Shown here piece by piece: positions 46,978 through 64,000 of a stretch of 64,000 bases of DNA; positions within the stretch are counted from its first letter, which is position 1; every line of letters starts with the position of its first letter. This DNA is from Flavobacteriia bacterium (GTDB taxonomy: Bacteria; Bacteroidota; Bacteroidia; Flavobacteriales_D; Crocinitomicaceae), in the NCBI GenBank assembly GCA_947458955.1, contig CANGZT010000001.1, positions 32,700 to 96,699 on the forward strand, in the 5' to 3' direction. The translations under genes and the position numbers were made by a program. The notes below the pieces were generated by a model. That model did no database searches and was not told the origin of the DNA. It saw nothing but the letters and a program-made list of their open reading frames with translations.

Positions 46978-47054
46978 GGCTTCGTAGCTCAACTGAATAG
47001 AGCACTACATTACGGCTGTAGAGGTTTAAGGTTTGAATCCTTACGAGGTCACCA
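46978..47054 (+). tRNA. tRNA-Arg (anticodon ACG), CCA encoded
   Basis: Hand-folded 77-nt cloverleaf. Acceptor GGCTTCG/CGAGGTC, D stem GCTC/GAGC, anticodon stem CTACA/TGTAG with loop TT-ACG-GC, T stem TAAGG/CCTTA, then discriminator A and CCA. Confidence 0.9.
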
Positions 47055-48612
47055 AAGCGGAGAACTGGTTATTTTTAACCAGTTCTTCTTTTTTTACCCC
47101 ATTCAAACTTCCTGATAATGTGTGAATTAAATCAAAAATCACATTCACTTCTGAGGTTTGAACTCGGTCATTTTTCTTGCAATACCACAATCCTCTTGGA
47201 AACAGTAGTTTTAGAAATTTTTGATTCTCGTAGAAACTCATAGACCTCCAGTGTTTACTGATGTTTTTACAGAAATCTAACGCTTTATTTATACAAAATT
47301 CAAGGTTTGAACTCGTGTTTCCATTACTTCCTAAAATTTCATTTAAAGCATCAATTTCTTCTATGTATTGCTTCGAAAATTTAGCGTAAATTTCATTCGA
47401 AATTTCTCCAATTGCATATCGTTCTTCAATTTTATCTAACTTGTTTTTTAACTGCGTTAGATTTGTTTTAATCGTTTTGTAATCTGATTCATCTTCTTTA
47501 GAAACTTCTGAAAAAACATACGACATCACATCTTTAATCACTTCAATCAATACTGGTTTTAATTCATATTGTTTCAATACCTTTTCAAAGTCTTCATGAA
47601 GCTGATTTGCATTTTTAGTACCAATACAGCCATTTGTTCTGCATTTGTAATAATACAAACGCTTTGCCTTTACTTCGAAGCCTGAGAGTGGTTTATTGCA
47701 CTCATTACAAAGAATAAATTGTCTTAAAGGCAGATTTTCATTTTCATTTTTATGCTCTTTAGGATGCATAGTTAGTTCAATTTGATTTAGCCTCAAAAAA
47801 TCTTTTTGAGAAATCAACGGTTTGTGTTTACCTTCATGTGCTTCACCAGGTAAGAGTTTGGTAGTTAAAATCCCACAATAATATGGGTTCTTAAAAACTT
47901 CGCCAAGTCTTCTTTCGTTGATGTTTACCCCTAAACGATTTAGTTTTCGAACAATCTCTGCATTTGAAAATTCATTATTTAAACGCCATTTAAATGCTTT
48001 TTGAAGATGTTTTCCTTCCTCTGTAATTTGAATATCCCAATCGACGGCTTTACTATGAACCTTTTTGTTTTCATATCCTATTGGAGGTGTCCAAAGCCAA
48101 TACCCTTTTCGAACCAAGTCTTTCATTCCAACTTTTGTTTTGTCTCTTCGTTGTTCATTGTCGAATTGACTAAACATATAAAACATACCTTGTTGAAATT
48201 TTCCTGCAGCAGTATCTGTTTCGGTATATTGGGTAACAGCCATAACATTGACTCCAGTTTTTTTCAATGATTCAGTTATATATGCAGCATTTGCACCTGT
48301 TCTTGAAAATCGATCGTAAGAATACACAATAATATAGCCTATACTTTTGTTTTTCTTTACATAAGTAAGCATCTTATTGAATTCTTTTCGATCATCTGTT
48401 TTCGCTGATTCGTGTGTCCCTCCAAAATATTCTACAACATTTAGACCTTTAGATATTGCAAACGATTCACAATACTTTTTTTGTGTTTCTAAACTCGTGT
48501 TATCTTCTTGATTTTTTGACGAGACTCGTGTATAAATTATGGCATTCTTTCTTGTCTCTAATGATTTATCCATTGGAGAAAATTTCTGGAATGCCTCTTG
48601 TAAATTTTTCAT
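47041..48612 (-). CDS. large serine recombinase (integrase of the downstream island)
   Basis: N-terminal resolvase domain with the catalytic Ser (AIIYTRVSSKNQ). Recombinase domain, zinc ribbon (CNECNKPL...YYYKCRTNGC) and coiled-coil tail. The last ~18 codons overlap the tRNA terminator and tRNA 3' end. Confidence 0.9.
   Translation of the reverse strand: MKNLQEAFQKFSPMDKSLETRKNAIIYTRVSSKNQEDNTSLETQKKYCESFAISKGLNVVEYFGGTHESAKTDDRKEFNKMLTYVKKNKSIGYIIVYSYDRFSRTGANAAYITESLKKTGVNVMAVTQYTETDTAAGKFQQGMFYMFSQFDNEQRRDKTKVGMKDLVRKGYWLWTPPIGYENKKVHSKAVDWDIQITEEGKHLQKAFKWRLNNEFSNAEIVRKLNRLGVNINERRLGEVFKNPYYCGILTTKLLPGEAHEGKHKPLISQKDFLRLNQIELTMHPKEHKNENENLPLRQFILCNECNKPLSGFEVKAKRLYYYKCRTNGCIGTKNANQLHEDFEKVLKQYELKPVLIEVIKDVMSYVFSEVSKEDESDYKTIKTNLTQLKNKLDKIEERYAIGEISNEIYAKFSKQYIEEIDALNEILGSNGNTSSNLEFCINKALDFCKNISKHWRSMSFYENQKFLKLLFPRGLWYCKKNDRVQTSEVNVIFDLIHTLSGSLNGVKKEELVKNNQFSALVTS
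47062..47095 (+). terminator. rho-independent terminator of tRNA-Arg
   Basis: GAACTGGTT-ATTTTT-AACCAGTTC hairpin (47062-47085) followed by TTCTTTTTTT. Confidence 0.7.
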
Positions 48613-48616
48613 GTTT

Positions 48617-48763
48617 TTACTTTAATGAATTGTTAATAATGATTCTACAAATTGTTTCTAGGCTTTCAAGTTCAAATGAACCCATTCCAAAACTGTTTAA
48701 TTTTCTCAGTAATTGAGTTTTGATTTCTTTAATTTTTTCCTTTTTCTTGTCAATAGTTTTCAT
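48617..48763 (-). CDS. small hypothetical protein (48 aa) directly upstream of the recombinase
   Basis: Below the track cutoff: MKTIDKKKEKIKEIKTQLLRKLNSFGMGSFELESLETICRIIINNSLK. Its stop lies 4 nt before the recombinase ATG. Confidence 0.25.
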   Translation of the reverse strand: MKTIDKKKEKIKEIKTQLLRKLNSFGMGSFELESLETICRIIINNSLK

Positions 48764-48855
48764 CCTATTCTCGGATGCGTTCACCTTCGTTGTTCGATAG
48801 GTTCACCTTGTTTCACAATTGCTTTGACTTATTCAATAGCGTTAATTATAAATTG

Positions 48856-49794
48856 TTATTTTTTAAATTTTGTTTTGTGTACATTTTCAACAAATACTTG
48901 CTCTTTGCCATTAGCAGTTATTATAATAGTGTTATATCTATTTTTGAATATGTAATCTGAAACTCTTTTTTCTGCGTAAAATTTCTCTTTTTTAGTCGCA
49001 TGCATTATTTTAAGTATTTCTGATTTTTTTTGATCAAAAAATAATTCAATTTTAGTAACACTTGGATCTCTAATCGATTTTAAAATTGTTAATTCATCAT
49101 TTGTTATCATTGACATTTTTTCTTCAGCAATAAATTCAAATGATATACCTTCAAAAAAAACTGAGCTTAATATTTCTGACATCGAAAGATTAAAATAACT
49201 TCCACTTAATAAAACTCTGCTTGGTTCATTAATTTCTATTTGTTCAATATCTCTACCTTCTTTTATAAAGTAAAAATCACCATCTTCATCGATTTTAAAA
49301 GTATATGTTAGTTTATTTATGAACATATCATATATTACCATTTCTAATAAATTAATTTGAACGTGATAATCACTGGGATTGATATTATTTAGTATTTCCA
49401 AAATTTTATCTTCTGATATTTCTGGACTCTTAGTTCTTATAACATCAAGCACACCTTTTTGTAAAAAACTTTCAATATCAACCTTATTAAATTTGTACAG
49501 TAATTTTTCCTTAAATGCTTGGATTATTTTAAACTCGATTCCAAAATCTCTCATCTTTTCAATGCATTTTAACCAAACGCAATCTAAAAATGAGTAGTTG
49601 TTTGTTGATCCTTTTACTATTTCTTTAAAAAGCAATCCTTTGCCTTTCCATTGATTTACAAAACGTGGCTCAATCATCAGATCTTTAGCACTGTATTGAA
49701 TCCTGTTTATTTTCTCTTGAAAATCAGTTATTTCAACTAGCATTTCTTGTGTTTTACTAGTTTCAAAATTTAGTTCTTCACTTTTTTTTATCAT
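48856..49794 (-). CDS. hypothetical protein with MerR-like N-terminal HTH
   Basis: YSAKDLMIEPRFVNQWKGKGLLF...YSFLDCVWLKCIEKMRDFGIEFKII resembles the MerR-type HTH pattern. The start is set at MIKKSEEL (49794). Confidence 0.4.
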   Translation of the reverse strand: MIKKSEELNFETSKTQEMLVEITDFQEKINRIQYSAKDLMIEPRFVNQWKGKGLLFKEIVKGSTNNYSFLDCVWLKCIEKMRDFGIEFKIIQAFKEKLLYKFNKVDIESFLQKGVLDVIRTKSPEISEDKILEILNNINPSDYHVQINLLEMVIYDMFINKLTYTFKIDEDGDFYFIKEGRDIEQIEINEPSRVLLSGSYFNLSMSEILSSVFFEGISFEFIAEEKMSMITNDELTILKSIRDPSVTKIELFFDQKKSEILKIMHATKKEKFYAEKRVSDYIFKNRYNTIIITANGKEQVFVENVHKTKFKK

Positions 49795-49952
49795 GGTCTT
49801 TTTATATTTTCTTTTCACAAAGATATTAAAAGAATTACAAAATAAAAACATTTTTTTAAATTAAACATTTTTAAATTTACAAACCCTCCGTTTTGTTTGG
49901 ATAGTTTTTTTTGGTTTATTGTATATTTACAAACTATTATTCAACTTAAACA

Positions 49953-50174
49953 ATGAAAGAATCAGAACTTAGAGAGAAAATATTCATTCTATCCGAAAAG
50001 TATAACGAAGAAAAAGACTCCATAGAACCTATAAAAAATGAAGAACAAATTGAATATCAAATAATTGATATGATTTTAGATTATATGTTAACCCAAAAAA
50101 TAATAGAATTAAAAGAAATAAAATCTGCTAATAAAATTCAACTAATTAATTTTAATTCGTTAAAAAAACAATGA
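49953..50174 (+). CDS. hypothetical small protein
   Basis: 73-aa ORF rich in Glu/Lys/Ile, with no recognisable motif. Confidence 0.3.
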   Translation: MKESELREKIFILSEKYNEEKDSIEPIKNEEQIEYQIIDMILDYMLTQKIIELKEIKSANKIQLINFNSLKKQ

Positions 50175-50295
50175 AATAGCTGAGATTAATTGGTATTACA
50201 CACAATTATTCTACCCTGGATTTTATGATTCTTTTGAAGAATTTTTAGATATGTGTAAAGTGAGACTATAATTGTAAATTATAGGTTAAAATTTC

Positions 50296-50583
50296 TCAAT
50301 TAATAATGGTGAAACTTCCAAAACTTCCCCTTTTTTTGTTTTTTACAACAAATTTCACAAAATAATTATATCGATTTCCACCAACCAAAATATCAGTAAC
50401 TATAACAGCAGAAGATTCTGTTTTTAGCTTAACATGATTACAAAGGCGATAGACAATCTGACCAAAACAATGTTTATACAATTCATTTGTTTTTTTTTCT
50501 TTGACGACCTTCATATACAGCCTTGAAAAATAACTTTTTTTGAATCTTGTGTATTCTTTATTATTTTTAGAATAAGAGAGCAA
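50296..50583 (-). CDS. hypothetical small basic protein
   Basis: 95 aa from a TTG start (or 72 aa from ATG 50514), with no recognisable motif. Confidence 0.25.
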   Translation of the reverse strand: MLSYSKNNKEYTRFKKSYFSRLYMKVVKEKKTNELYKHCFGQIVYRLCNHVKLKTESSAVIVTDILVGGNRYNYFVKFVVKNKKRGSFGSFTIIN

Positions 50584-50819
50584 GAAATCGTTTCTTGTGA
50601 TTTTTTCTTCGTTTTTATATACTTGTTACTAATACTCGAAAGTATACCTAAAGTAAAAACAAAAAATTAGGATATGATTTCATAGAAGAATTTTTATTTG
50701 TAATTTAATTGATAATAAATGGATAACGACATCAACCCAATTCTTGATACCCTCTTACTAAATATTACTAACTAAGATAGAGAGTTGTTAGTTGTGTTTA
50801 ATTATTAAACAAAAAATTT

Positions 50820-51239
50820 ATGTTACAAGATTATGCAGTAATAATTCAAGGAGCAGCAATAAGAAGCTCAGAATTTACAGAAAATAGAGAGGCTTTGATT
50901 TTAAGACAAAGTCACATTAAGAATAATGGAGAATTAGTTTTTTCAACAGATGAAAACTATATAGAAATAAATGAACAAAATAAACGATATCTCATTCAGG
51001 AAGGTGATATCATAATGGCAACAACTGGTCCCTTAAACATAATTGGCAATATGTTTCAATATAAACTCCCAATGAAGGCAATTGTTGCTGGTCCTTTAAT
51101 CATAATAAGACCTAACGAAAATCCTGAAGGACTTTACAATCGGTTGAAAGATAAATATTATCATATTAAAACAATGGTATCCCCAATTGCAGGTATGACT
51201 AGAATTACTATTAGACAAATACGAGAATTGGAGTTATAA
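50820..51239 (+). CDS. orphan type I restriction S-subunit (HsdS) target-recognition-domain-like protein
   Basis: 139 aa. LIQEGDIIMATTG...AGPLIIIRPNENPEGLYNRLKDKYYHIKTMVSPIAGMTRITIRQIRELEL follows the single-TRD pattern of HsdS proteins. No hsdM or hsdR is in the window. Confidence 0.45.
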   Translation: MLQDYAVIIQGAAIRSSEFTENREALILRQSHIKNNGELVFSTDENYIEINEQNKRYLIQEGDIIMATTGPLNIIGNMFQYKLPMKAIVAGPLIIIRPNENPEGLYNRLKDKYYHIKTMVSPIAGMTRITIRQIRELEL

Positions 51240-51304
51240 AGAAATACCTATAATAATCAACAACAAACAAAATTTTGAAAAAGTTATAATTAATATTTTT
51301 TTAT

Positions 51305-51820
51305 ATGAAATTCAATAATATAGAACTGATCCTAAAAAAGTCATCTTATGAATTTGAGGTGAATGATCCTGTTTACCAAAAATCAGAATGTATATTTTGT
51401 AGTGAAAACTCAAGTTTTGGTGGGTACTCTTTTGCTTATGCTGGATTAATATATAAAATGTTAGTACCTGTAGTTCAATTTCAAAACGAAAAGCCTGTAT
51501 ATCCACTAAGAAAAATATTATCGTTAGATAATCTTAGTAAACCTATTCAAATATGTACACCTGTAATAAAAAACAACAGAGTAGAAGCTAAAACACTAAT
51601 GAACGAAATACTTGATGTAAGTAGAAAAAATAGGTTTTGTAAAATTGTTTTTACCCATTTCATCAAAATCAACCAATCCCATCATAAACTAAATATGCTG
51701 GGGATTCTAGATGCTTTAAAAGAAAATAATTTGAACTCAGAATTAAGCATTGTTCTTTCAATTGATGAAAATCATATTGAAGCATTTGAGGCAATTCTTA
51801 ATGAATATAACAACGCTTAA
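51305..51820 (+). CDS. hypothetical protein
   Basis: 171-aa ORF lying 65 nt after the HsdS-like gene. No motif recognised. Confidence 0.45.
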   Translation: MKFNNIELILKKSSYEFEVNDPVYQKSECIFCSENSSFGGYSFAYAGLIYKMLVPVVQFQNEKPVYPLRKILSLDNLSKPIQICTPVIKNNRVEAKTLMNEILDVSRKNRFCKIVFTHFIKINQSHHKLNMLGILDALKENNLNSELSIVLSIDENHIEAFEAILNEYNNA

Positions 51821-51934
51821 GTTTTTTTTAACTTTGATTAGATATATATGCGATTATAGTCTAAGCGATCATAAAGACTACGCGCGCGTTTATGAAATAT
51901 GTTACTAAATCAAAAATTATTTCAGATAAATAAA

Positions 51935-51977
51935 AGAGGCTGTCTCAAATATTAGAATAACAGCCTCTCAATTTTTA
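51935..51977 (-). terminator. hairpin terminator downstream of the STAND/263-aa gene pair
   Basis: AGAGGCTGT-16 nt-ACAGCCTCT. On the minus strand it is followed by TTTTATTTAT. Confidence 0.55.
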
Positions 51978-52072
51978 CCTAGGGGTGGGAATTTAAACCT
52001 TCATCGGATTACGCCAGATGACCTACGACCAGTTTTAAATTAGGAATCACTGGTTTCCTATGTATAAATAAA

Positions 52073-52864
52073 TTAGACCAACTCAAAATTTTGATTTTCA
52101 TCAAAGGGAAAAAAACCGCCATCTCGATCTATCAACATGATACTATTTGTGTACTCATTATCTAATAAAAATTGCTTTACTGTTTCTACAAAAAAGGGTA
52201 ATGCTCTATTATCATGATCATTATTTTCCATCAAAGTAAACCCCATACTTAATTTGTTTATACCATGAGTACCTAGCATTTTTTTCAATAGTTTAAAACT
52301 ATAATTTACCCTCTGTTGTACAAAGTTATTAATGTCGATCTCTCCATCATAGTTATTATTTATAAAGAGAAGATACGAGGTTTTATTCGTTTCATTTTCA
52401 ATTATTTTATATAAGTTATCAAATTGAATATTATCATTAAATCTAATATTATTAAAAATATTTTCATCACAAACTATCCAGTTATTTTGTGAGAAAGTAT
52501 AAGTTCTAAAATTATCGTTTTCAAAAAATAAATTTCGGCTTTGGTTCTTGAAGACTATAGTGGCATCAACAATAAAAAAGTACTTGCTTAAATTATCTTT
52601 TTTACGATGAATGTATTTAGAGGAATTGTCAACAAATGATATTCCTGAAGAATTTAAGACATTTTGTTTTCCTTCGATATCTAAATTACTGAATGCTTCA
52701 ATTTCATAATTATTAAATATATAAATTGCTAATGTTTCATGTATTCTTAGATTATCTAGATTTTCACGAATAACATTTAATCTATAACTAGGATTGTTAA
52801 TGGAATCTGGATTTAATGTAAACTCACGTAAATAACTATTTAATATATTATTATTAATTTCCAT
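52073..52864 (-). CDS. hypothetical 263-aa protein, putative partner/effector of the upstream STAND NTPase
   Basis: Clean ORF on the same strand, 96 nt downstream of the 1750-aa gene. Asn/Ile/Phe-rich with no recognisable catalytic motif. Confidence 0.6.
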   Translation of the reverse strand: MEINNNILNSYLREFTLNPDSINNPSYRLNVIRENLDNLRIHETLAIYIFNNYEIEAFSNLDIEGKQNVLNSSGISFVDNSSKYIHRKKDNLSKYFFIVDATIVFKNQSRNLFFENDNFRTYTFSQNNWIVCDENIFNNIRFNDNIQFDNLYKIIENETNKTSYLLFINNNYDGEIDINNFVQQRVNYSFKLLKKMLGTHGINKLSMGFTLMENNDHDNRALPFFVETVKQFLLDNEYTNSIMLIDRDGGFFPFDENQNFELV

Positions 52865-52960
52865 CTCTATATTTATTTTAATTACATAATCAAATCGAAG
52901 TTACAAAATAAATCAATTTTAAAAGCTAACTAGACACAACATTATCAGTAATTTATTATT

Positions 52961-55900
52961 CTAATTCAATCTATTATAAATATCAATCGCCCATTGTATT
53001 TCTAAGGATTTGTTTAAGCGATGGATTTGTTCTTCAGATATATCCGTTAAAAATATTCTCCAAATAGCATATTTTTTGAGTAGTTTTTCAATATTATCAC
53101 TATCATGAACGATGTGTTTAAGACAATCTTGAATAAAAACTTGGTCGACTTTGATTATATTTTTTTCCTCAATAAGTGTCTTTAAGAAAATTTCACGAAT
53201 TTCTTCGTGTTGGAATTGTGACATGATTTGTAAGAAAAATTGCGAGCTTGATTCCTTCATAAGTTGACTAGCAATAATTTCCCATACTTTTCGTCTTTCC
53301 CATAACTCAGAAATGGATAGACCGGCCTTTTCTGTTAAATGATATTTTTTTTGATTGAAAAGTTCCAAAGCAATTTGATGAAGCGTACTGTTTTTAGTAC
53401 TATCAAAATGAATATTTTGCACACATTTTAATGCTTCTTCAAACATACCTTGTTTTGTCATTTCAATGGATATTACCTCAAGTACGTAATTTTTATAGTT
53501 CCAATCAGAGATGTCATTTGAACATTCAATTGCTTTTGATGTATTGCCCTGTTTAGCCATTTTTAAGGAAATGATTTTCAAAAAATAATCTTTTTTTAAC
53601 TGATTATTTAAGTGTTTTGCAAAATACAATGCTTCTTCATACTTTCCATTTTCTACCTCCTCAAACAAAAAGTATGTATGTAAATCATTTTTTATTGTCA
53701 AATCCTCTATAGTTGCGGAAATTTGAAATGCTTCTTCAACCTTATTTTGTTTGAAAATCTCTCCAAAAAGTCTATTTATATTTATAGGAGAAAAATAATC
53801 ACAATAATCATTTAATTCTTTGGCAAATAAAAAGGCTTCTTTAATCATTGATAGGTTGATAATTTGTGGAAATATTTCTTCTATATCGGATAATTTAAAT
53901 ACTATTTCCTCTTCATCGATCCAACCTTTATTCTTTTGAATTCTAATAAACACCATCACGTAAGACAGAATGTCTTGCATCATTTTTTTAGCTTTTATTA
54001 TTTGACCTTGAGTTATGAGCTCAGATATAATGTCTTTCCATTTCTCAAAATAAAAATCAAAATTATAATTGTTAAAATCTTTTTGTATTAACATAAGAGC
54101 ATCATCTAATATAGAGGATGACTCTGCAAACTTACTCTGTAAAAATAAGGCATGGGAAATATCTTTTAAATCTAAACATCTCGAAAATGCATTAGCTAAC
54201 TCGCGCGCCTCATTCAGTATTGGATCAACATCTTCTATGAAACCTTGTTCTGTTAATTGATTTACCACAGAAAGCATGGTTCTACTAGAGTTTATCTTAC
54301 GTGCGTATTGTAATGTATATTTAAGTATTGTACGTGAATCAATAATCGTATGCGGAGATGATTCAAACATACCTAATTCTATTTCAAACTCTTTTATAAT
54401 ATGTCCCTGCATAGCCATTTTTGAAGAGATTTCTAATAATGTTCTTGTTTTACTATCTTCTAATTGAAAAAACTCTTCATTTCCGTCTTTCATAATTCCT
54501 ACTAATTGAATAGCAGCCTCAAACAAATTTTGTTTTAGTAATTCAAAACAGATTTTTTCTAAATCATTGTTATCTAGCTTATCACTAATTAAGTTAACAC
54601 ATTGTAAAGCTGCTTGTAATCTGTTTTGATTAACGAATTCCATTAAAATGTCTGCAAATGATGGGGGAAACCAATTATAATATTCGCATCTAAATTCACT
54701 AATTGTATCTAATACTGCTTCTAGATTTCCTTGTTTTGAAAATTCAATGCAAATTTTAGAAAGAACATTATTTGCATATTTTATTTCTTTTGATAATTTA
54801 AATGCTTCATTCAATTTCCCTTCATTGGCAAGTTTAATGGAGATATCGGTAAGTAAATTTTCTCTTTTTTCATTTATAGTATCTCTTACTGAAATAATCG
54901 ATTCATTCATCAAATCGATAATATCCTGCCATTTGGATTGAAACGATAATTCTGAACAAATCGCTTGAATTACTTCGCTCTTCCAATCATTATTCGAAAT
55001 GTTCAAACTCAATTCAAGCGCTTTCTGCATTGTTTGCTCTGCTTCGTCCAATAAGTTAACGATATATAATTCAGAGGAAATAGCAGCTAGTCTTATAGCC
55101 TTTTCACCATCATCTGTTGTATCGTTTGCTATAGCGAATGCTTCATCAATCTGACCATGTTTTACTAATTGCTTTACTAATTTCATGGTGATTATATAAT
55201 TAAAGTTAGTCCCTGTTCTAACCATAGTAATAGACTCAACCCATTCTCTAGCAATATCAAGCTTTCCTTTTTTTTCAAGTGCTGGAATAAAATCGTCGAA
55301 ACAATACCATGAAGTATTATCACCTCTATCATCAATTATACTAAAATTTAACACTTCAATCATATGAACCTTAGCCATTTCCAGTCTATCTTGTTCAATA
55401 AGGGCTAAAGTTTTTAATATTTCTACATCATATTGTTCATTATATCCTGTGTATTTCTCAAGTTCACTTATAGCATGATCTATTGAGATTAAAATTTCAG
55501 AATCTCTTTCTGCATTTACTTTATTTTCTTCTGTAGTCAAATGAAGTAATGATTCTATTTTATATACGATATCTCCGACACCTAAAATAAATTTATACAC
55601 ATCAAACCCTTTACCTAAATAAACCATTTGTGAATATATTTTTTTTAACAATTCTTTATATTCCTCTTTCCAGTAGGGAAAGGGTATTTCATTGTAAACT
55701 TCACCTAAAACATCTTTCAAAGACCAAAATCTATCGTAATCATCATCATCATAAACATCAAAATTATTTTCTTGATGTTTCTTAGAAAGTTCATTATCTA
55801 AGAGTTTATAAATAATATTCAATGCTTCATGTAAAAGAGAGATAGCTTCAGAAGTTCGCCCTTGTTTAGAAAATTCTGACGCAACAAATTCTAAAATATA

Positions 55901-58213
55901 ACTTTTACTATATAATTCATTAATTGTACTTGCAAAATCAAGTGCTTCATCTATTTTACCATGTTTTGCGTATTCAATACCTAATTCTCCAAATGCTATG
56001 TTTTTTTGCCATTCATCACTAATTCTTTTGGCACTAGCATAAGCTTCATTTAGTATGTTTAATTTTTCTATATCCACTTTTTGTGTATCAATATTTCTTA
56101 TGATAGTAATTAACGCATAAAAAATATCAAAGTCGTTGTTTAATGTTCGAGCAATTTCAAGAGCTTCTTCGATTCTTCCGTGACATCCTATTGAAGTAAA
56201 TATACCTGTTATAGAGTCTCTTTTTATTCCAAAATCATTGATTTTCTTTGCGATAGTAAGTCCTTCGTGAATAAACGCTAAAGCTTTTTCTTCCTTACCC
56301 TGTTTACCAAGTTCTGTGGATATGTCCGTCAGCGCGATACATATATCAGATTCTTTTTTTAAATTTCTAGCATGTTCAAGCGCTACATCAAGCTTGTTTT
56401 GTTTGATTAACTGCTTTATTACAAAGTTTTTACTGCAAATGTTTTCTAATACTTTTAGTTCACTATCCGAAAATGGAGCTTCTCTTTCTAGACATATCTC
56501 TATTTCTTGTTCATTGAAGTAACTGAAGTAACCTCTTTTTAAAACAATTTTATAATCTAAATCTAAAGCAACCCATTGTCCTGCCATTTTGAAAACTAGG
56601 TTTATCGGAAAAAAGTCACTCCAATTCAAAAGTTTATAATTCATTGGGAGATGCTCATCTAAATGATTCAGTAGTTTTTCAAGGGCTTCTTTTTGGAAAG
56701 GTTTATTTTTACTATCCAAAAGTGTTAATTCCATCAGGCACGGCATGTAGAGTTTAAACTTACGTTTCAACCCTTCCTCATCATTATTCGCAAAACTTTC
56801 TATTCGTTTCAGGGCTAAATCTATCTCATTGTCAGTAACTAAAGTCAACACGAATGGTGCTTCAGCTGTTTCTTCACTTTTTAATTCTACCAAATTAAGT
56901 GCTGATTCCAACTGTAAATGGTAATCATTTAGTTCTAAAGATTTTTCCAAACTTAGCTGGTAAAGATTTTTCGTTGCATCAAAATGCCTTAATACTTTCT
57001 TTTGTGTATCTGTATAATCCTTATTTTGAAAAAGTGAAAACAAGTCTGTTTGGTGCACTTTTTGACTGCTTACGCTTAGATGTCGTCCATAATTTTCTAA
57101 AGCGTATCGCTGTTCCCATTCACCCATTTGATTTTTCCAAGTGGAACAAAAATGAATAATCTGCGTATTTGCTTCATCTAAGTTAGCAGATTCCCATTTC
57201 ACCAAATATTCTCTTAAACTTTCATGGAATAATTGATATCCTATCACACCCTCATCAAGGATACTTTCGTAACAAAACTCTTTTATAAGAACGTTAAGAT
57301 GTTTTAGTGTTTCATCATCAAGATTATTAATCAGACCTAGATGTCTAAGAGTCAAAAAATCGTATGCTGCAGCCAATAAATACATACACCTTAAAAGATC
57401 TTCACCATGTATATTTTTAGCATATCGTTGCAGAATGGATTTGTAATAATCATTTAGTTCAATGGGTAATACATTACTTTCATTGACTTTAATGAATCCT
57501 TTATCAATTGAATCACACATTAATTTTAAATACAATGGATTTCCTTGAGAGGCGTTTACAACTTTTCGAAACCAACTGTCTTCAACTTTCAGATTATATC
57601 TTTGGGCTACTTCATCAAGTATTTCCTGAATGTTATTTTCTGTTAAACCACCTAACTCAATTTTTACAAAATTTTCTCTTGGCAAAGATGCCCAGAGTTC
57701 TTCAATTTGTGTATCGCTACCAGGTCGCGAACTAAAAATAAAAATTATATTATCAAATAGTTGACGAGGAAGGTAACTAACTAAATTGTTTTCTGTCCCT
57801 TCATCCAAACCATCGATGAATATCAATAGTTTTTTATCTTTATTTTGCTCGCTCCATATCCGCCACTTGGAAAACAATTGTTGTTGTATATTTAGAATAG
57901 TTTTACCCTCAGACTTAATTTCCCTGGCTTGAGGAAAAAGATCATCCGTTTTTTTAATTAAATCATTCAAAAAATATTCAATCTGAGCTTGGGCTGTTCC
58001 GCGACGAATCCATGACGCAATTATCTCGGTATTTATCAGCTCATTTTCCAATCGTATATCTTTAATAAATTCAGCGACAAGTGAAGATTTACCTATACCT
58101 GGATGACCAAAAATGCAGAAATATCCATTTTTGTTTTTTTTTACATAATCTAGAAATTGTGTACGTTCTATTTGTCTACCTATAAATCTATGTGAGTTTT
58201 GTTTTTGTGTCAT
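52961..58213 (-). CDS. NACHT-type STAND P-loop NTPase with >1000-aa C-terminal helical-repeat array
   Basis: Walker A GHPGIGKS (aa 36-43), Walker B LLIFIDGLDE (aa 129-138), FIFSSRP (aa 158-164) and GNPLYL (aa 224-229). At least 14 copies of an (I/L)xxE(L/F)xKQGxxxEA-type helical repeat follow. Confidence 0.85.
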   Translation of the reverse strand: MTQKQNSHRFIGRQIERTQFLDYVKKNKNGYFCIFGHPGIGKSSLVAEFIKDIRLENELINTEIIASWIRRGTAQAQIEYFLNDLIKKTDDLFPQAREIKSEGKTILNIQQQLFSKWRIWSEQNKDKKLLIFIDGLDEGTENNLVSYLPRQLFDNIIFIFSSRPGSDTQIEELWASLPRENFVKIELGGLTENNIQEILDEVAQRYNLKVEDSWFRKVVNASQGNPLYLKLMCDSIDKGFIKVNESNVLPIELNDYYKSILQRYAKNIHGEDLLRCMYLLAAAYDFLTLRHLGLINNLDDETLKHLNVLIKEFCYESILDEGVIGYQLFHESLREYLVKWESANLDEANTQIIHFCSTWKNQMGEWEQRYALENYGRHLSVSSQKVHQTDLFSLFQNKDYTDTQKKVLRHFDATKNLYQLSLEKSLELNDYHLQLESALNLVELKSEETAEAPFVLTLVTDNEIDLALKRIESFANNDEEGLKRKFKLYMPCLMELTLLDSKNKPFQKEALEKLLNHLDEHLPMNYKLLNWSDFFPINLVFKMAGQWVALDLDYKIVLKRGYFSYFNEQEIEICLEREAPFSDSELKVLENICSKNFVIKQLIKQNKLDVALEHARNLKKESDICIALTDISTELGKQGKEEKALAFIHEGLTIAKKINDFGIKRDSITGIFTSIGCHGRIEEALEIARTLNNDFDIFYALITIIRNIDTQKVDIEKLNILNEAYASAKRISDEWQKNIAFGELGIEYAKHGKIDEALDFASTINELYSKSYILEFVASEFSKQGRTSEAISLLHEALNIIYKLLDNELSKKHQENNFDVYDDDDYDRFWSLKDVLGEVYNEIPFPYWKEEYKELLKKIYSQMVYLGKGFDVYKFILGVGDIVYKIESLLHLTTEENKVNAERDSEILISIDHAISELEKYTGYNEQYDVEILKTLALIEQDRLEMAKVHMIEVLNFSIIDDRGDNTSWYCFDDFIPALEKKGKLDIAREWVESITMVRTGTNFNYIITMKLVKQLVKHGQIDEAFAIANDTTDDGEKAIRLAAISSELYIVNLLDEAEQTMQKALELSLNISNNDWKSEVIQAICSELSFQSKWQDIIDLMNESIISVRDTINEKRENLLTDISIKLANEGKLNEAFKLSKEIKYANNVLSKICIEFSKQGNLEAVLDTISEFRCEYYNWFPPSFADILMEFVNQNRLQAALQCVNLISDKLDNNDLEKICFELLKQNLFEAAIQLVGIMKDGNEEFFQLEDSKTRTLLEISSKMAMQGHIIKEFEIELGMFESSPHTIIDSRTILKYTLQYARKINSSRTMLSVVNQLTEQGFIEDVDPILNEARELANAFSRCLDLKDISHALFLQSKFAESSSILDDALMLIQKDFNNYNFDFYFEKWKDIISELITQGQIIKAKKMMQDILSYVMVFIRIQKNKGWIDEEEIVFKLSDIEEIFPQIINLSMIKEAFLFAKELNDYCDYFSPININRLFGEIFKQNKVEEAFQISATIEDLTIKNDLHTYFLFEEVENGKYEEALYFAKHLNNQLKKDYFLKIISLKMAKQGNTSKAIECSNDISDWNYKNYVLEVISIEMTKQGMFEEALKCVQNIHFDSTKNSTLHQIALELFNQKKYHLTEKAGLSISELWERRKVWEIIASQLMKESSSQFFLQIMSQFQHEEIREIFLKTLIEEKNIIKVDQVFIQDCLKHIVHDSDNIEKLLKKYAIWRIFLTDISEEQIHRLNKSLEIQWAIDIYNRLN

Positions 58214-58450
58214 AAAAATCTATTTTAAATAGTATATATTGTGTAACTTCCTTTTTTTTAGTGAGTTGTAACAAATATATAAAGTTTATAAATATACTTT
58301 AATTACGCTTTATTTTTTAATGCGTAACAAACTATTATTGAAAGATAAAAACTGTTTATTAATAAATCAAACGGATTTTAAAAAAGGTATGTATAAAATA
58401 TCAAAACAATTATTAGAAATCAATTTAATAAAACAAAGAAAAGTAATGCA

Positions 58451-59329
58451 GGAGCAAAGCCATTTGATGTTGTCATGATGTTCAAAATATTGATTTTACA
58501 ACGTTATTATGGTCTTGGAGACTCACAATTAGAGTATCAAATAATTGATAGAGCAAGTTTTAAAAAATTTCTTGGTTTGGAAAGCGGTTATAAAGTGCCA
58601 GATGAAAAAACAGTTTGGTCTTTTAGAGAACGAGTTACAAAAAGAAGGGTAGATTGAGAAAATATTCAAACAGTTCAATGCTTATCTTGAAGGTAAAGGT
58701 TTAATAATGAATAAAGGTAAAATGATTGATGCAAGTTTTACAATTGCCCCACGTCAACGTAATACCCATGATGAAAACAAAACAATAAAAGAAAATAAGG
58801 GGGTGAACTTTGGAATCATAAACCAAACAAAAAGAATCAAATAGATGTAGATGCTCGCTGGACGAAAAAAAATGGAGAAACCTTTTATGGACATAAAAAC
58901 CATACAAAAGTAGATGCAAAGTTCAAATTCATTGATAAATATAAGGTTACAGATGCTTCAGTACATAACTCTCAAGTATTAAATGATTTAATTGAAGAAA
59001 AAGACCAAGGACAAGATTTATATGCTGACAGTGCTTATCCTGGAGAAAAGCAAAAGAAAATCATATCATCATACAAAATGAATAATAAAATCCACGAAAA
59101 AGGATATAGGAACAAACCATTAACAGACCAACAAAAACAAAGTAATAACGAAAAGTCAAAAACCAGAGCTCGTGTTGAGCATGTGTTTGGATTTAATGAA
59201 CAAAGTATGAAAGGGTTGTTGGTGAGGTCTGTCGGTAAAGCAAGAGCAACAGGAATTATAGGACTTATAAATCTTACTTACAATATGTTAAGATATGAAC
59301 AAATCATAAGATTACCGCCTCAAAATTAA
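58451..59329 (+). pseudogene. decayed IS5-family DDE transposase
   Basis: Homology starts mid-protein (GAKPFDVVMMFKILILQRYYGL). A frame change and an in-frame TAG lie near 58635-58650, and a second frameshift sits at the G-run near 58797-58803. The DDE residues are still recognisable (MIDASF, LYADSAY, RARVEHVFG). Confidence 0.8.
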
Positions 59330-59516
59330 TAAACAACAATGAAAAATCATATATGTAATTATATGTTAGTTAGTTAGTCTTCAAAATTAAATTGAGAAAC
59401 AAAAGAAAAATAGTATATCTTTGGAATGATTTGAAAGTTTAGTTAAAGAGTTCTGCGAAATTTTCAAATTAAAAAAAAGAGAAAAAATGAATTTTCAGAA
59501 CTCACCTTAAAAACAA

Positions 59517-60101
59517 ATGATGAAACTAAATGAATATTTAAAAAATCATTTTCCTAATGATTTAGCAAGGTTAAAATTTCAAAAACCTAACTCTGTTATC
59601 CAAGATACCCTTGATTCTTTTAATATTGATCAACATACGATTTATTTTGGTGGTTTGAATTGGGAGAACTTAGACCAAGACATTGAACATATTGATAAAG
59701 AGTGTTACGAACATTTCTTTTTTTGTTTATTTACGATAACAATTATTGACTTAACTATATTTTCCCATTTTAAACATTATTACGATATTTTCAGAGGTAA
59801 AACAAGGTATCCTAAATTTGGGTGGAGTGGTTACGGTCCTCATTATGAAAACCCAAAAAAATTAATCGATATCCCTTTTCAAAAAGGACTAATTAGAATA
59901 GATGAAATTTACATAGATGAATATGTTCAATTATTTATTTCAGAAACTAATTCTTTTCTTGAATCAAATCTCAATCAAATTACAACTGTAGATTTTTTCA
60001 ATTCTCTACTAACAGACAGAGATTTTCAGTTAAATGAAAATGAAGAAAACACATATACACCACTCATAATAAAAAAATTAAAAGAAAAGTTCGAAAATTA
60101 G
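59517..60101 (+). CDS. hypothetical protein
   Basis: 194-aa ORF upstream of mcrB with no recognisable motif. Confidence 0.45.
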   Translation: MMKLNEYLKNHFPNDLARLKFQKPNSVIQDTLDSFNIDQHTIYFGGLNWENLDQDIEHIDKECYEHFFFCLFTITIIDLTIFSHFKHYYDIFRGKTRYPKFGWSGYGPHYENPKKLIDIPFQKGLIRIDEIYIDEYVQLFISETNSFLESNLNQITTVDFFNSLLTDRDFQLNENEENTYTPLIIKKLKEKFEN

Positions 60102-60240
60102 CCAAAAGTTCAAACAAACCCACATCGCAATACCAAGTGTAATTATGCATAGAGTCCTTACTTGGTAGATAAGAGTAAAGGAGTTTATTAACTAATGATT
60201 TAGCAATAAGGCTAAAAAAAACAATTATAATAAAAATAAT

Positions 60241-61614
60241 ATGCCAAACATTACACAATTTATACAAGTAGCTAATCAACAAACACCTGGCCAAAATACA
60301 ACACCGTCGGCTTTAGCATACAAAAGAGAAAATGAAATACCTTTTGAAAATCTAAATGTTAAAATTTCTTTTGGAATAGGTAGCGCAACCTATATTCCTT
60401 GGATAGCATATCTAGGCTATAATCAATCTGTACAAAGGGGGATTTACCCTGTTTTGCTTTTCTATAGAGAATTTAATTTATTAATCTTAGCCTTTGGTGT
60501 TTCTGAAAAATATGAGCCATTAATAAATTGGCAAGACCCAGAAAATTATTTAACAATAAGTAACTATTTTGAACAAAACCAACTTGGGAAACCAAGAAAA
60601 TATGGGAATTCTTTTATACACACCGTGTACGATACTAATCAACCAATTGATGAAACATTAATACAACAACAAATAATAGACTTAACAACATTTTATTATG
60701 CTTGTTTTAATCCTACACCTAATGATCAAGGAGAAATTGTTCCTGTTTATGACTTTGATACTGACCCAGACAAACCATTTATAACTCGAGAAGTCTTCAT
60801 TAAGACAACAAACCTATTAAAACGAAAAAGAAATATTATTCTTCAAGGTCCTCCAGGTGTTGGTAAAACATTTATAGCACGTAAAATTGCTTATCAGATT
60901 ATGGGACAATCTGCTGATGCATTTATAGAAATGATACAATTTCACCAATCATACAGCTATGAAGATTTTATTCAGGGATTAAGACCAACAGTTGATGGGT
61001 TCAAAATAATTCCAGGTGTATTCTTCAGATTTTGTCAAAAAGCGATTGCTCATCCAGACAAAAAGTTCTTCTTCATTATTGACGAGATAAATCGAGGCAA
61101 TTTAAGCAAAATATTTGGCGAACTTTTAATGTTAATTGAAGCAGACAAAAGAGGAGGAAAATACTCAATTAACCTTACCTATTCCGAATTTGATGATGAT
61201 AAATTTTTCGTCCCTGACAATCTCTTTATTATTGGAACAATGAATACTGCTGACAGGTCACTAGCAATCGTTGATTATGCCTTAAGAAGGCGCTTTGCTT
61301 TTGTGTCTCTACAGCCTGACTACGGTGATAATTTCAGAAACTTCCTTATAGGAAATCAACTTTCACAAATAATGGTAAACCATATCTGTTCTTCCGTTAC
61401 CGAAGTGAATAATATTATCAATGAGGATATTAATTTAGGAAGTGGGTTTCAAATCGGTCATAGTTATTTTTGTAATAGCCCAAATACGATTACTGAAGAA
61501 ATCTGGTGGCGAGAAATTCTAGAGTTTGAAATAAAACCATTACTATCAGAAATTTGGTTTGATGATGCAAATAAAGTATCGGATATGATGCAAATATTAG
61601 CCTATCCAGATTAA
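60241..61614 (+). CDS. mcrB: McrB-family AAA+ GTPase restriction subunit with MrcB_N/DUF3578-like N-terminal DNA-reader domain
   Basis: Walker A LQGPPGVGKTF, FFIIDEINRGNLSKIFGELLMLIE and GTMNTADRS...ALRRRF. The N-terminus ISFGIGSATYIPWIAYL...GIYPVLLFY resembles the MrcB N-terminal domain. Confidence 0.85.
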   Translation: MPNITQFIQVANQQTPGQNTTPSALAYKRENEIPFENLNVKISFGIGSATYIPWIAYLGYNQSVQRGIYPVLLFYREFNLLILAFGVSEKYEPLINWQDPENYLTISNYFEQNQLGKPRKYGNSFIHTVYDTNQPIDETLIQQQIIDLTTFYYACFNPTPNDQGEIVPVYDFDTDPDKPFITREVFIKTTNLLKRKRNIILQGPPGVGKTFIARKIAYQIMGQSADAFIEMIQFHQSYSYEDFIQGLRPTVDGFKIIPGVFFRFCQKAIAHPDKKFFFIIDEINRGNLSKIFGELLMLIEADKRGGKYSINLTYSEFDDDKFFVPDNLFIIGTMNTADRSLAIVDYALRRRFAFVSLQPDYGDNFRNFLIGNQLSQIMVNHICSSVTEVNNIINEDINLGSGFQIGHSYFCNSPNTITEEIWWREILEFEIKPLLSEIWFDDANKVSDMMQILAYPD

Positions 61615-61616
61615 CG

Positions 61617-62663
61617 ATGAGAATTCCCATTCTAAATATCTATCACTTATTATGCTATGCATGGAAAACACTTGATGAAAAGGAACGAATTAGGGTTGAA
61701 ATTGATGATACTACGGAATTAGTTGACCTTTTTGCAAAGGTTTTAATAAGAGCAACAAAAGTACTTATTAAAAGAGGAATTGATAAAAGTTACATTGAAC
61801 ATAATGAAGAAATTGCAGGAGTAAAAGGAAAACTATTAATAAGTGAAACTGTAAAGAGTAATATTTTATTTAAACAGCGAACTATATGCAATTTTGATGA
61901 TTTTTCACCCAATATTTTAAGCAATCAGATACTATTAACAACTATTTATAACTTAATTAGAACACAAGGAATTGATAAAGAATTAAAAGATGAATTAGAT
62001 TCACTTCATAAAATGTTTATAGGGATTGATCTAATTGAAATTAAGAGTTCCCTATTTAAGCAAATTCGAATTAATAGAAACAATCGGTTCTATGGTTTTG
62101 TGATGAATGTTTGCCAATTAGTATTTGAAAGTACATTACCATCCGAGGAAAAGGGAAAATATTTGTTCTCAGATTTTACTAGAGATGAAAAGAAAATGCC
62201 TATACTTTTCGAAACATTTGTCAGAAATTTCTATAAAATTGAGCAACATATATTCTCAAGCGTCAAAAGAGATAATATTAAGTGGTATTTCGAAATTTCG
62301 GACACATTAAGTGACCAATACTTACCAAAAATGCAAACAGATATTACTTTAGAAAATTCAAATAATAAAATAATAATAGACACAAAATATTCTCAAAAAA
62401 CAATGACTATCAACTACAATATGGAAAAAATAAAATCAAGTCATTTGTATCAAATGTTCAGCTACTTATTAAATCAAGAAAATGAAACTGAAAAGACAAG
62501 AACAACTACAGGAATTTTACTTTATCCAACAATAGAACAAGACTATGATTTGAACTTTAGGTATAATGAACATGACATTAAAATCAAAACAATTAATTTG
62601 AATACTGAATGGCAAAATATACATAATAGACTATTGTCAATTATAGGTATCAATCAAACTTAA
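61617..62663 (+). CDS. mcrC: McrC-family restriction endonuclease subunit
   Basis: Starts 3 nt after mcrB. Its C-terminal PD-(D/E)xK-like core is MQTDITLE...IIIDTKYSQK. Confidence 0.8.
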   Translation: MRIPILNIYHLLCYAWKTLDEKERIRVEIDDTTELVDLFAKVLIRATKVLIKRGIDKSYIEHNEEIAGVKGKLLISETVKSNILFKQRTICNFDDFSPNILSNQILLTTIYNLIRTQGIDKELKDELDSLHKMFIGIDLIEIKSSLFKQIRINRNNRFYGFVMNVCQLVFESTLPSEEKGKYLFSDFTRDEKKMPILFETFVRNFYKIEQHIFSSVKRDNIKWYFEISDTLSDQYLPKMQTDITLENSNNKIIIDTKYSQKTMTINYNMEKIKSSHLYQMFSYLLNQENETEKTRTTTGILLYPTIEQDYDLNFRYNEHDIKIKTINLNTEWQNIHNRLLSIIGINQT

Positions 62664-62740
62664 ACACTCTAAATAACAATTATATAATAATATAATTAAC
62701 AACTTTTTTAGTATATTTAATAAGTTTAAAAAAGTACCCT

Positions 62741-63625
62741 ATGTTCTTAAAATACAAACATCCCAAAATTGATGATCATTCTTTATATTATTTAAAGACT
62801 GATAATTATCAAACAACGCCTGTAGACTTAACTTCTTTTATTCTTGATAGAATTGATAAAAACAAAGATATTAGTGAGTTTATAAAGAATTTTGAAACAT
62901 TAGGTATAGAGAATGATATACCAAGTTATTTTCAAAATTACATGAGTATTGCAGATGTTGAGTTAACCTCAAGAGTTTTAGCGCCAATTGCCAATCAGAT
63001 TGAAACTTATATTAAAGGTTGTAAGAATTTTGATTTAGAAAGTTTTAATAATGCATTAATCGCATCTATTAATGAACTAAAAGAAGATGAAATAGTTGAA
63101 GCTTTATTTGCAAACCGATTAATTTGGAACTATTTAAATGATAAAAATAAGTTAGAAAGTAAATTAAAGTCTTTCAAATATATAGATTCAATTAATCCTA
63201 AGGAGATAGATAAATTAAAATCTATTGCAATTCACTTTTTTTTGAAAACGAGTGATTTTAATCTGCAAGAGTTGAATTCTTTCAAGTTAAATACAAAACC
63301 TAATGTAGTATTTTATCATAACGATGATAATAAAATTTATCTTGAAATTGATCATGAATCAAAAACCGTTTGGTTTGATAAAGAAACATCAGATTGGATA
63401 AATAGAACAAATACGGTCACATTTGATGGATCATGTGACTTTGATACCCTTATACATTTATACTTTTTATTATCTGAGACAGTTTTAAGTGGTAGTAATA
63501 AAGAATATAATATGAAAGTAAGGTCTTTCAAACCAATTTGGTTTAGAGCAATGGGTTACACTGTAAAACCATCTGGCGAATATGCAAAAACCTATTGGAA
63601 AATAATTGAACAACAAATCAATTAA
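62741..63625 (+). CDS. hypothetical protein
   Basis: 294-aa ORF lying 77 nt after mcrC with no recognisable motif. Confidence 0.5.
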   Translation: MFLKYKHPKIDDHSLYYLKTDNYQTTPVDLTSFILDRIDKNKDISEFIKNFETLGIENDIPSYFQNYMSIADVELTSRVLAPIANQIETYIKGCKNFDLESFNNALIASINELKEDEIVEALFANRLIWNYLNDKNKLESKLKSFKYIDSINPKEIDKLKSIAIHFFLKTSDFNLQELNSFKLNTKPNVVFYHNDDNKIYLEIDHESKTVWFDKETSDWINRTNTVTFDGSCDFDTLIHLYFLLSETVLSGSNKEYNMKVRSFKPIWFRAMGYTVKPSGEYAKTYWKIIEQQIN

Positions 63626-63628
63626 ATT

Positions 63629-64000
63629 ATGAAAGAAGTTGTAATTGGACTACAAGTTTGGTCAAATAAAGATTTAGATACTGAATGTTTCGCTAATGGA
63701 GATCAAATACCTCAAGTTTTTTCTTCTCAAGAATGGATTGAAGCAAATGATAAAAAACAACCTGCTTGGTGCTATTATGAATTTAATGAAGATAACGGGA
63801 AGTTATACAATTCATATGCAATAAATGATGAGCGTGGACTACCACCTAAGGGTTGGAGGATACCAACCGTATCGGACTTAGAACAATTACTTAAGACGAT
63901 TAATAATGGTAGTTCGAATGAATACGTAATCTTATCTGAAAATAAAAGTTATTGGGATTTTGGATATGATTATAGTGGCCCAGATTTTTGGGGTTGGGAT
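63629..64000 (+). CDS. FISUMP (Fibrobacter succinogenes major paralogous) domain protein, partial
   Basis: IGLQVWSNKDLDTECFANGDQI...PAWCYYEFNEDNGKLYNSYAINDERGLPPKGWRIPTVSDLEQL matches the remembered TIGR02145 pattern. It runs off the window end. Confidence 0.6.
   Translation, partial: MKEVVIGLQVWSNKDLDTECFANGDQIPQVFSSQEWIEANDKKQPAWCYYEFNEDNGKLYNSYAINDERGLPPKGWRIPTVSDLEQLLKTINNGSSNEYVILSENKSYWDFGYDYSGPDFWGWD

Follow-up and report, generated by a model that had tools for sequence, protein, structure and literature searches.

A large serine recombinase whose gene end overlaps its putative target, the 3′ end of a tRNA-Arg gene, at the edge of a flavobacterial defence island

Overlap of a tRNA-Arg gene and a recombinase gene

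We analyzed a 64,000-nucleotide stretch of DNA from a Flavobacteriia bacterium of the Crocinitomicaceae (GenBank assembly GCA_947458955.1, contig CANGZT010000001.1). This stretch, hereafter the window, corresponds to C1:32700-96699 of a 114-contig assembly that is ~60% complete. Our subject is the segment 47041-47095, in which a recombinase gene on the minus strand runs into a tRNA-Arg gene on the plus strand. This segment is very probably the left attachment site (attL) of a 24.8-kb defence island that was inserted by the large serine recombinase (LSR) encoded at the island's edge. The features that carry the argument are listed below; attB and attP denote the attachment sites of the bacterium and of the element, with left and right arms B, B′, P and P′, and attR the right junction of the inserted island.

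46978..47054, plus strand: tRNA-Arg(ACG), called by ARAGORN; intact after integration, as judged from the empty site in genome G004
47032..47037, plus strand: TTTGAA of the T-loop, part of the B arm, with GGTCAC following after 9 nt; putative motif for the zinc-ribbon domain (ZD) on the bacterial side
47041..47043, minus strand: stop codon TAA of the integrated form of the recombinase, from tRNA T-stem bases 63-65
47045..47052, no strand: core GAGGTCAC, common to attL, attR and attB, narrowing to GGTCAC at 47047-47052
47053..47095, plus strand: predicted P′ arm of the element, with stem-loop 47059-47088 and T-tract 47089-47095; the opposite strand encodes ..KKEELVKNNQFSAL
47041..48612, minus strand: LSR gene in its integrated (truncated-tail) form, 523 residues, assigned from Pfam, PDB matches and homologues

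The tRNA-Arg(ACG) gene is the only tRNA gene in the window. The recombinase open reading frame (ORF) ends in ..GVKKEELVKNNQFSALVTS, and its stop codon is the complement of tRNA bases 63-65 in the 3′ strand of the T stem. ORF and ARAGORN coordinates thus agree with the original prediction, made from the letters of the window, that the recombinase stops inside the 3′ part of the tRNA gene. That prediction had also described the 3′ end of the recombinase gene as reading through a hairpin and T-tract, and this was confirmed by a terminator scan and by folding: the last ~17 codons are the antisense of both elements 3′ of the tRNA-Arg. Of the ORF, nothing but the stop codon and the last base of the Ser codon derives from the host side.

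Pfam detects a resolvase domain (PF00239, residues 24-171, E = 2.3e-28) and a recombinase domain (PF07508, residues 198-277, E = 5e-07) in the encoded protein; a match to the zinc-ribbon family Zn_ribbon_recom (PF13408) is below threshold (20.4 against a cut-off of 25.3 bits). Residues 190-439 align to the C-terminal domain of the A118 integrase (PDB 4KIS), and the catalytic domain matches PDB sequences that include TP901-1 (3GUV, 3BVP). Among 61 aligned homologues, the Y-T-R-V-S motif shows no variation and C301, C304 and C323 are invariant. An AlphaFold model of one homologue, P0013, has long paired helices at 352-428. By its sequence, the protein is an LSR with a predicted resolvase domain, recombinase domain and zinc ribbon with an inserted coiled coil.

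Empty site, island ends and crossover core

Genome G004, from the same genus, contains the empty site on its contig C183, where ClpS and ABC-F genes are followed by an identical tRNA-Arg and then by DNA matching contig C21 of our assembly (91.6% identity over 4 kb downstream of the tRNA-Arg). No recombinase was found in G004, so that this island-less relative does not show the case the original prediction had named as speaking against it, a recombinase retained without the island. As had been proposed, comparison with an empty site defines attB and the junction.

The last 129 bases of C1 (104080-104208) are identical to the start of reverse-complemented C21 (C21:20689-20817), which places C1 and C21 next to each other and makes the island contiguous. 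The island runs beyond the window to C1:104208 and then into C21, and synteny with G004 resumes past the right core at C21:20340-20347 (window-equivalent 71851-71858). Core to core, its length is 24,806 bp. The assembly break between C1 and C21 falls inside the last gene of the island, which encodes a Zn-ribbon-like protein on the minus strand.

The three sites read as follows. In the window, attL is ..GGTTTGAATCCTTAC GAGGTCAC CAAAGCGGAGAACTGGTTATTTTTAACCAGTTCTTCTTTTTTT.., with the junction form ..CCTTACGAGGTCAC|CAAAGCGGAGAAC..; on C21, attR is ..GGTTTGAACTTTTTTTGATT GAGGTCAC TAGAAAGCGAGAATGTAAGTTCTCGCTTTTTTT.. (..TTTGATTGAGGTCAC|TAGAAAGCGAGAATGTAAG..); and in G004, attB is ..GGTTTGAATCCTTAC GAGGTCAC TAGAAAGCGAGAATATAAGTTCTCGCTTTTTTT.. 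(..CCTTACGAGGTCAC|TAGAAAGCGAGAATATAAG..). The host-side sequence of attR is 97.8% identical to the G004 empty site. Only the 8 bp of GAGGTCAC at window positions 47045-47052 are common to all three. The second copy of 47041-47095 that had been predicted downstream was not found: the whole assembly contains no second long copy of 46970-47140, just chance matches of 13-22 nt. Since serine integrases are expected to leave few shared bases, here 8, the missing long repeat is not evidence against an island.

Using the pattern TTYRAA-N14-GGTCAC, we searched for further right ends and found candidate attR sites in G257, G204, G130 and G249, on the correct strand and 14-96 kb from the recombinase; the candidate in G249 lies on a different contig from the recombinase. 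They have a common P-arm flank, ..CCTCYAAAAAG.., and a host-type terminator follows four of the five candidate sites, with a decayed P′ arm in its place in G204. These sites narrow the common core to GGTCAC, which corresponds to tRNA bases 69-74 and to the V-T codons of the recombinase. All 61 aligned homologues keep the V codon (GTN, covering A73 and C74), and identity between attL and attR stops directly past AC in three of five pairs; we therefore propose AC (47051-47052) as the candidate central dinucleotide. The comparison shows that the predicted crossover falls inside GAGGTCAC, within the V-T codons. Of the junction described originally, the placement in the recombinase 3′ end therefore stands, and its location moves from 47062-47095 to 47045-47052. 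For this element, the predicted attP junction is ..TTTTTTTGATTGAGGTCACCAAAGCGGAGAAC.. and the predicted restored attB is ..CCTTACGAGGTCACTAGAAAGCGAG...

G002 was considered as a second empty site and rejected: its tRNA is followed by the tRNA's own terminator and by genes for GIY-YIG, DUF5715 and an HsdS-like homologue, which represent another occupant. At this locus (L018 4200-9253, G002:C32), the tRNA-Arg stands without a recombinase and the HsdS-like gene, of 139 amino acids, lies 4.5 kb further on. The HsdS-like region has ~80% DNA identity to window ~50807-51367, and is thus the same cargo at the same hot spot, with no integrase.

Origin of the hairpin downstream of the tRNA

The stem-loop at 47059-47088 has 13 pairs followed by TTTTTTT on the plus strand, as detected by the terminator scan, and folds at −19.4 kcal/mol (z = −7.1 relative to shuffles). 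It stands where a tRNA terminator is expected, and the tRNAs at empty sites also have a hairpin and T-tract there. The original prediction accordingly regarded it as a host terminator foreign to the recombinase; the crossover would then lie to the right of the hairpin (~47095 or beyond), and the recombinase would have acquired ~18 host codons. The sequence past GGTCAC at the empty site, however, differs from that of the window and recurs at the far end of the island: the host terminator TAGAAAGCGAGAATGTAAGTTCTCGCTTTTTTT follows the core at both attB and attR, and has been moved to the far end.

The window hairpin instead accompanies the recombinase. The arrangement GGTCAC-N3/4-GCGGAGA..TCTCCGC-TTTTTT follows the tRNA in 23 related loci, whether the tRNA-Arg has the anticodon ACG, TCG or TCT. 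In an ungapped alignment of these 23 loci, 98% of stem cells are paired and eight of the 13 pairs show compensatory changes; none of 500 shuffles reached the observed values, and controls slid along the alignment were 31-51% paired. Contigs lacking any tRNA (L025, L064, L065 and L066-68) likewise have the hairpin in their attP-type copies. These comparisons show the hairpin to be native to the element, in which it forms the P′ arm, and not the terminator of the host tRNA. The idea that it belongs to the host is refuted by the attB/attL/attR comparison, and we give it next to no credence. Because the hairpin travels with the recombinase, the last ~17 codons can be read as native coding sequence that doubles as a rho-independent terminator on the other strand.

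Exchange of the recombinase C-terminus

When the P arm of attR is rejoined with the P′ arm of attL, the result is a 541-codon ORF with the end ..NQFSALVTS-IKKSSNLLQSDINNFLNY. The integrated form stops after 523 residues, ..ALVTS, and the rejoined form after 541, ..ALVTSIKKSSNLLQSDINNFLNY, the gain being the 18-residue tail IKKSSNLLQSDINNFLNY. The claim that the crossover lies in the last recombinase codons and changes the C-terminus is thus borne out by the comparison of G004, attL and attR. The same difference between integrated and free C-termini was seen in G257, G249, G130 and G204.

Approximately 9-10 relatives, either attP-type or attR-derived, have a tail of the same type, with V[TS]-x5-S-N at fixed spacing and then [FL]-L-(x)-E-D. 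The P arms of the candidate attR sites in G257, G204, G130 and G249 encode ..GSNFLEDL.., ..ISNFLWEDL.., ..ISNFLREDT.., ..GSNNLADDL.. and ..SSNFLEDI... The C-terminal motif is present in 112 database homologues; in 94 of these, the protein finishes with tRNA-antisense residues or stops no more than two codons from the junction, while seven end in a free-type tail that is not tRNA antisense (e.g., ..VTSRGHSSNFLEDLNGLID and ..VTSTRQSSNFLEDFVALQKMVSSI). The ends of the integrated forms range from a stop after one residue, as here, through ..GFKPETSTAVM to read-through of whole tRNAs. Within the free-type tails, the [FL]-L-(x)-E-D part shows synonymous differences (TTG/TTA, GAG/GAA, GAT/GAC) and one-codon insertions, which suggests that the tail is translated under selection, at least past the S-N codons; the latter coincide with the DNA motif TTTGAA of the P arm. 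The comparison shows that integration would remove a conserved recombinase tail, and its loss may alter the activity or directionality of the enzyme.

A functional recombinase that ends at about residue 490-505 would make the tail swap inconsequential, the open frame beyond being a by-product of constraints on the DNA. Several observations fit such a reading. The two arms of the hairpin stem account for the conserved residues G-E and F-S, the I-K before them represents the T-tract, and TTCAAAC accounts for S-N; the first residue of x-S-N varies (S, G or I), and its codon always ends in T. AlphaFold confidence is low past residue ~505, and the integrated tails are arbitrary tRNA-antisense peptides of 1 to >50 residues, as though the enzyme tolerated anything. 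On the other hand, the frame stays open over ~17 + 2 + 15-40 codons of AT-rich DNA in every attP-type copy, and insertions or deletions within the tail involve entire codons (W, R). Moreover, L-E-D and later positions vary synonymously at 33-38 bp from the core, beyond the usual limits of attP. We regard a functionless tail as improbable.

Recognition of the target

The distance from TTTGAA to GGTCAC is 9 nt in the tRNA (B) arm and 14 nt in the P arm of this element. The 14-nt spacing is found in seven attP-type sequences (this element, L024/L064, L025, L065, L066, L013 and L015, the last two with a degenerate motif), all of which had been identified through their protein tails or by homology, independently of spacing. 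The P arm of G249 resembles the tRNA arm with five extra bases after the motif. In cryo-EM structures of phiC31 integrase, the zinc-ribbon domain sits at ±17-27 on attP and at ±12-22 on attB, 5 bp closer. If positions are counted from AC, GGTTTGAA covers −22 to −15 of the B arm and −27 to −20 of the P arm. TTTGAA may therefore be the recognition motif of the ZD, with a 5-bp shift in register that applies to the left arms only.

In the genome under study, the 3′ end GGTCAC occurs only on tRNA-Arg(ACG) and tRNA-Arg(TCG), which fits the restriction of the family to tRNA-Arg. The T-loop of its tRNA-Arg(ACG) reads TTTGAA, versus TTCGA in most tRNAs of this genome.

Distribution and decay of the recombinase family

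We found 1408 recombinase homologues at E <= 1e-30, with named sources in Flavobacteriales and other Bacteroidota. Within the same bacterial family, 89 of 301 genomes, from 20 of 29 genera, have a match at E <= 1e-40. Among the best 30 homologous loci (45-100% identity), the recombinase 3′ end overlaps an antisense tRNA-Arg (ACG, TCG or TCT) in 28, and one further locus is cut by the end of its contig. Overlap in 28 of the 30 best loci is not attributable to chance, and shows a family that, judging from these loci, targets tRNA-Arg.

Within the genus, the gene is intact in G000 and G010, truncated at the 5′ end in G013, and reduced to 3′ remnants in G009, G015 and G006, and G004 is empty. The 3′ remnants in these genomes adjoin the tRNA or sit downstream of it. 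In G010 and G015, the sequences flanking the remnants without a tRNA matched neither the genome under study nor G004. At L021 (G010:C45), a 14-nt copy of the tRNA 5′ end (GGCTTCGTAGCTCA) lies ~50 nt upstream of the tRNA-Arg, apparently left over from a previous rearrangement of the locus.

The presence of every stage of decay among same-genus genomes, together with many metagenome remnants, raises the question of whether the junction, though real, marks an island that is now fixed and immobile, with a recombinase heading for decay and an overlap that is merely historical. A search of metagenome contigs for the attP junction did not recover the excised form, as would be expected of such a relic. 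The gene described here, however, has its full length and all of its domains, neither att site is damaged, and the P arm retains an open 18-codon tail with the motif of the family. These properties, and the near-identity of the attR host side to the empty site, suggest that insertion was recent. We consider a fixed remnant rather unlikely, if slightly less so than a functionless tail.

Junctions that look like attP, with P arm, GGTCAC and P′ hairpin, are common on just the last 20-130 recombinase codons. Such remnant junctions occur at L013 5521-5715 (G010:C4), L015 3823-4050 (G015:C37), L059 and metagenome loci L069-L093, and several lie 0.9-9.5 kb downstream of tRNA-Arg. At L069, L089 and L092, the upstream tRNA-Arg has an attL of its own, giving tandem arrays of elements and att remnants, and L092 has three P arms within 4.4 kb. 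At L075, a host-type terminator follows the tRNA and an attP-like site comes 0.86 kb later, an order that simple accretion does not explain. We considered whether free-type protein tails prove the existence of free circles and rejected this, as most metagenome attP-type junctions are remnants, several of them in arrays.

In L066-L068, ~35 nt from the region of the P-arm tail recur as an imperfect direct repeat (TCTTCAAACCAAATATTAGAATTTCTTGAA / TTTTCAAATCAAATGTTAGAATTTCTGGCT), ~100 nt past the recombinase stop. Their core is GCTCAC instead of GGTCAC, which suggests that they may form a sub-family with another target.

Neighbouring genes and cargo

Three further features lie to the right of the recombinase start or span the part of the island that is in the window.

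48617..48784, minus strand: small ORF at a conserved position; candidate directionality factor or regulator
48856..49851, minus strand: MerR-like helix-turn-helix protein, 331 residues, with a weak Pfam MerR_1 match and conserved gene order
47053..64000, no strand: left 17 kb of the island, delimited and annotated from the C1/C21 overlap, G004 synteny, Pfam and PADLOC

The end of the small ORF is 4 nt from the start of the recombinase gene, and the ORF encodes 48 amino acids from ATG 48763 (55 from a GTG). Of 32 related loci, 27 have an ORF of 48-91 amino acids in this position, most with a common ..LETYCELIINYTLK.. region; the ORF in the window has no Pfam match. The order of a MerR_1 gene (316 amino acids) and then the recombinase recurs in metagenome contig L024/L064, and L025 has a 320-amino-acid gene without a Pfam match at the MerR-like position. 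Neither the small ORF nor the MerR-like gene matches a known family of recombination directionality factors; from their positions, both may be candidates for a directionality factor or regulator.

According to Pfam and PADLOC, the cargo comprises an HsdS-like fragment, a 1750-residue STAND NTPase, an IS5 remnant, McrBC, three DUF4116 proteins and AbiEi/AbiEii. The same scans detected no conjugation or phage genes among the island genes, and no tyrosine integrase had a Pfam match among the scanned island ORFs, a set that leaves out several small ORFs. By its predicted gene content, the element is a small integrative defence island.

Proposed course of integration

These data are best accommodated by the following model, in which the island was inserted at the tRNA-Arg gene by its own LSR. 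In the free element, attP would lie inside the recombinase 3′ end: the P′ arm would consist of codons ~505-520, with the terminator on the opposite strand, the core GGTCAC would be the V-T codons, and the P arm would encode 18 more residues. The target attB would be the 3′ end of tRNA-Arg, its left arm consisting of the acceptor stem's 3′ strand and the T-loop with TTTGAA, its core of GGTCAC (bases 69-74), and its right arm of the tRNA's own terminator. Crossover within GGTCAC would leave the mature tRNA sequence unchanged, provide the tRNA with the terminator of the element and move the host terminator 24.8 kb away to attR. It would also separate the recombinase ORF from its tail, the new stop being supplied by the T stem of the tRNA. 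Once in place, the element terminator may shield the convergent recombinase gene from tRNA read-through.

In the integrated tRNA-Arg gene, bases 1-74 are identical in kind to those of the empty-site tRNA, and bases 75-76 (CA) come from the element. The gene reads ..GGTCA-CCA, with the CCA end encoded, and the G004 empty site reads ..GGTCA-CTA. Window position 47053 is C in this element and T in most of its relatives.

Several results weigh against this model or parts of it. The exact attP junction of the element had 0 matches in metagenome contigs, and none of the attP-type contigs (L064-L068 and L069-L093) is circular or has terminal overlaps. A family-level attP pattern matched 25 metagenome stretches, of which only two (L069 and L076) have a full-length match to the recombinase; most of these stretches carry just a recombinase remnant. 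Many attP-type junctions are part of chromosomal tandem arrays in which the recombinase genes are truncated. No mirror image of TTTGAA was seen by inspection in the right arms (B′ and P′). In the AlphaFold model of the free-form homologue P0013, the tail is helical, but with predicted local distance difference test (pLDDT) scores of 35-52, and we did not use it as evidence. Finally, conservation of the last ~17 codons is not separable from constraints at the DNA level, namely those of the terminator and the binding site.

Comparison with known systems

The recombinase resembles the canonical LSRs (A118/LI, phiC31, Bxb1 and TP901-1) in its domain order, in its sequence matches to A118 and TP901-1, in the few bases that attP and attB have in common, in an outer motif 5 bp further out in attP (phiC31), and in the position of the integrase gene at the edge of the element. 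It differs from them in its target, which is the 3′ end of a tRNA gene and not a protein-coding gene or intergenic DNA, and in the location of attP inside the integrase coding sequence, with a P′ arm that encodes a terminator for the target gene. Its right half-sites, unlike those of the canonical systems, have no evident symmetry to the left ones. A serine recombinase beside a tRNA gene is unusual in general, tyrosine integrases being the customary enzymes there, as the original prediction had pointed out.

An attachment site inside a recombinase gene has precedents in tyrosine recombinases, among them that of Myxococcus phage Mx8, whose target is tRNA-Asp, and the SSV1-type archaeal integrases, in which attP lies in the int gene and integration into a tRNA gene splits int. 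The SSV1-type enzymes differ from the present case in being tyrosine recombinases whose gene is divided into two sizeable pieces; the gene described here loses just a short tail. For Mx8, the passage of PMC4701971 that deals with this phage describes attP in the integrase gene (IntP/IntX) and the replacement of 112 residues by 13 upon integration into the tRNA gene, and adds that the prophage form of the integrase was reported to be less active. Mx8 too is unlike our element, as it uses a tyrosine recombinase with other chemistry, longer segments of identity and arm-type sites. Closer in chemistry are the streptococcal rumA integrative and conjugative elements (ICEs), in which the att site likewise falls inside the gene for the serine integrase, and the excised form differs in length and C-terminus (Ambroset et al., 2016; PMC4701971). 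Their target is the protein-coding gene rumA, with no tRNA and no replacement of a terminator, and the matter occupies one passage of that paper, with no analysis.

Classical tRNA islands (Islander/TIGER; Williams, 2002) share integration at the 3′ end of a tRNA gene that is thereby restored, tRNA-Arg as a hot spot, and tandem arrays. They use tyrosine integrases, however, and duplicate a tRNA fragment of 15-50+ bp, compared with 8 bp here, and in the present case the body of the tRNA is not replaced, only its trailer and terminator. The island thus departs from the classical type in its tRNA-proximal gene, a serine recombinase, and in its repeat of only 8 bp. A tRNA-Arg island of Riemerella uses a tyrosine integrase, and a 2022 survey of 6,207 LSRs and their att sites makes no mention of tRNA. 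Our literature search found no description of a serine integrase that targets a tRNA gene and carries a terminator for it, the nearest being the remark on rumA ICEs (PMC4701971).

The insertion of large DNA is done mainly with serine integrases, whose natural targets are regarded as protein-coding genes or intergenic DNA. The locus described here gives a resolved set of attB, attP, attL and attR for a family that is predicted to target the last bases of tRNA-Arg, and the half-site registers read from its sequence agree with the phiC31 structures. In a case of dual coding, a covarying terminator for the target tRNA occupies the same DNA as approximately 17 codons of the recombinase, and the two C-terminal isoforms, set by the state of integration, amount to a natural experiment on directionality. 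For annotation, the arrangement accounts for Bacteroidota recombinase ORFs that run into tRNA genes and for the 3′ remnants downstream of tRNA-Arg.

More tentatively, this very large family of Bacteroidota LSRs may use tRNA DNA as a landing pad, with the T-loop as zinc-ribbon motif and the discriminator base plus C74 as crossover site, and with the S-N-F-L-E-D helix as a switch that reports the state of integration; we hold this to be possible but still doubtful. If true, the enzyme would be made in full length by the free element alone, insertion would swap the tail for junk or a stop, and tail replacement would change activity or directionality, while the dual-coded terminator would preserve the function of the tRNA. 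A weakly specified B′ half-site would, moreover, let elements of this family stack in arrays downstream of tRNA-Arg.

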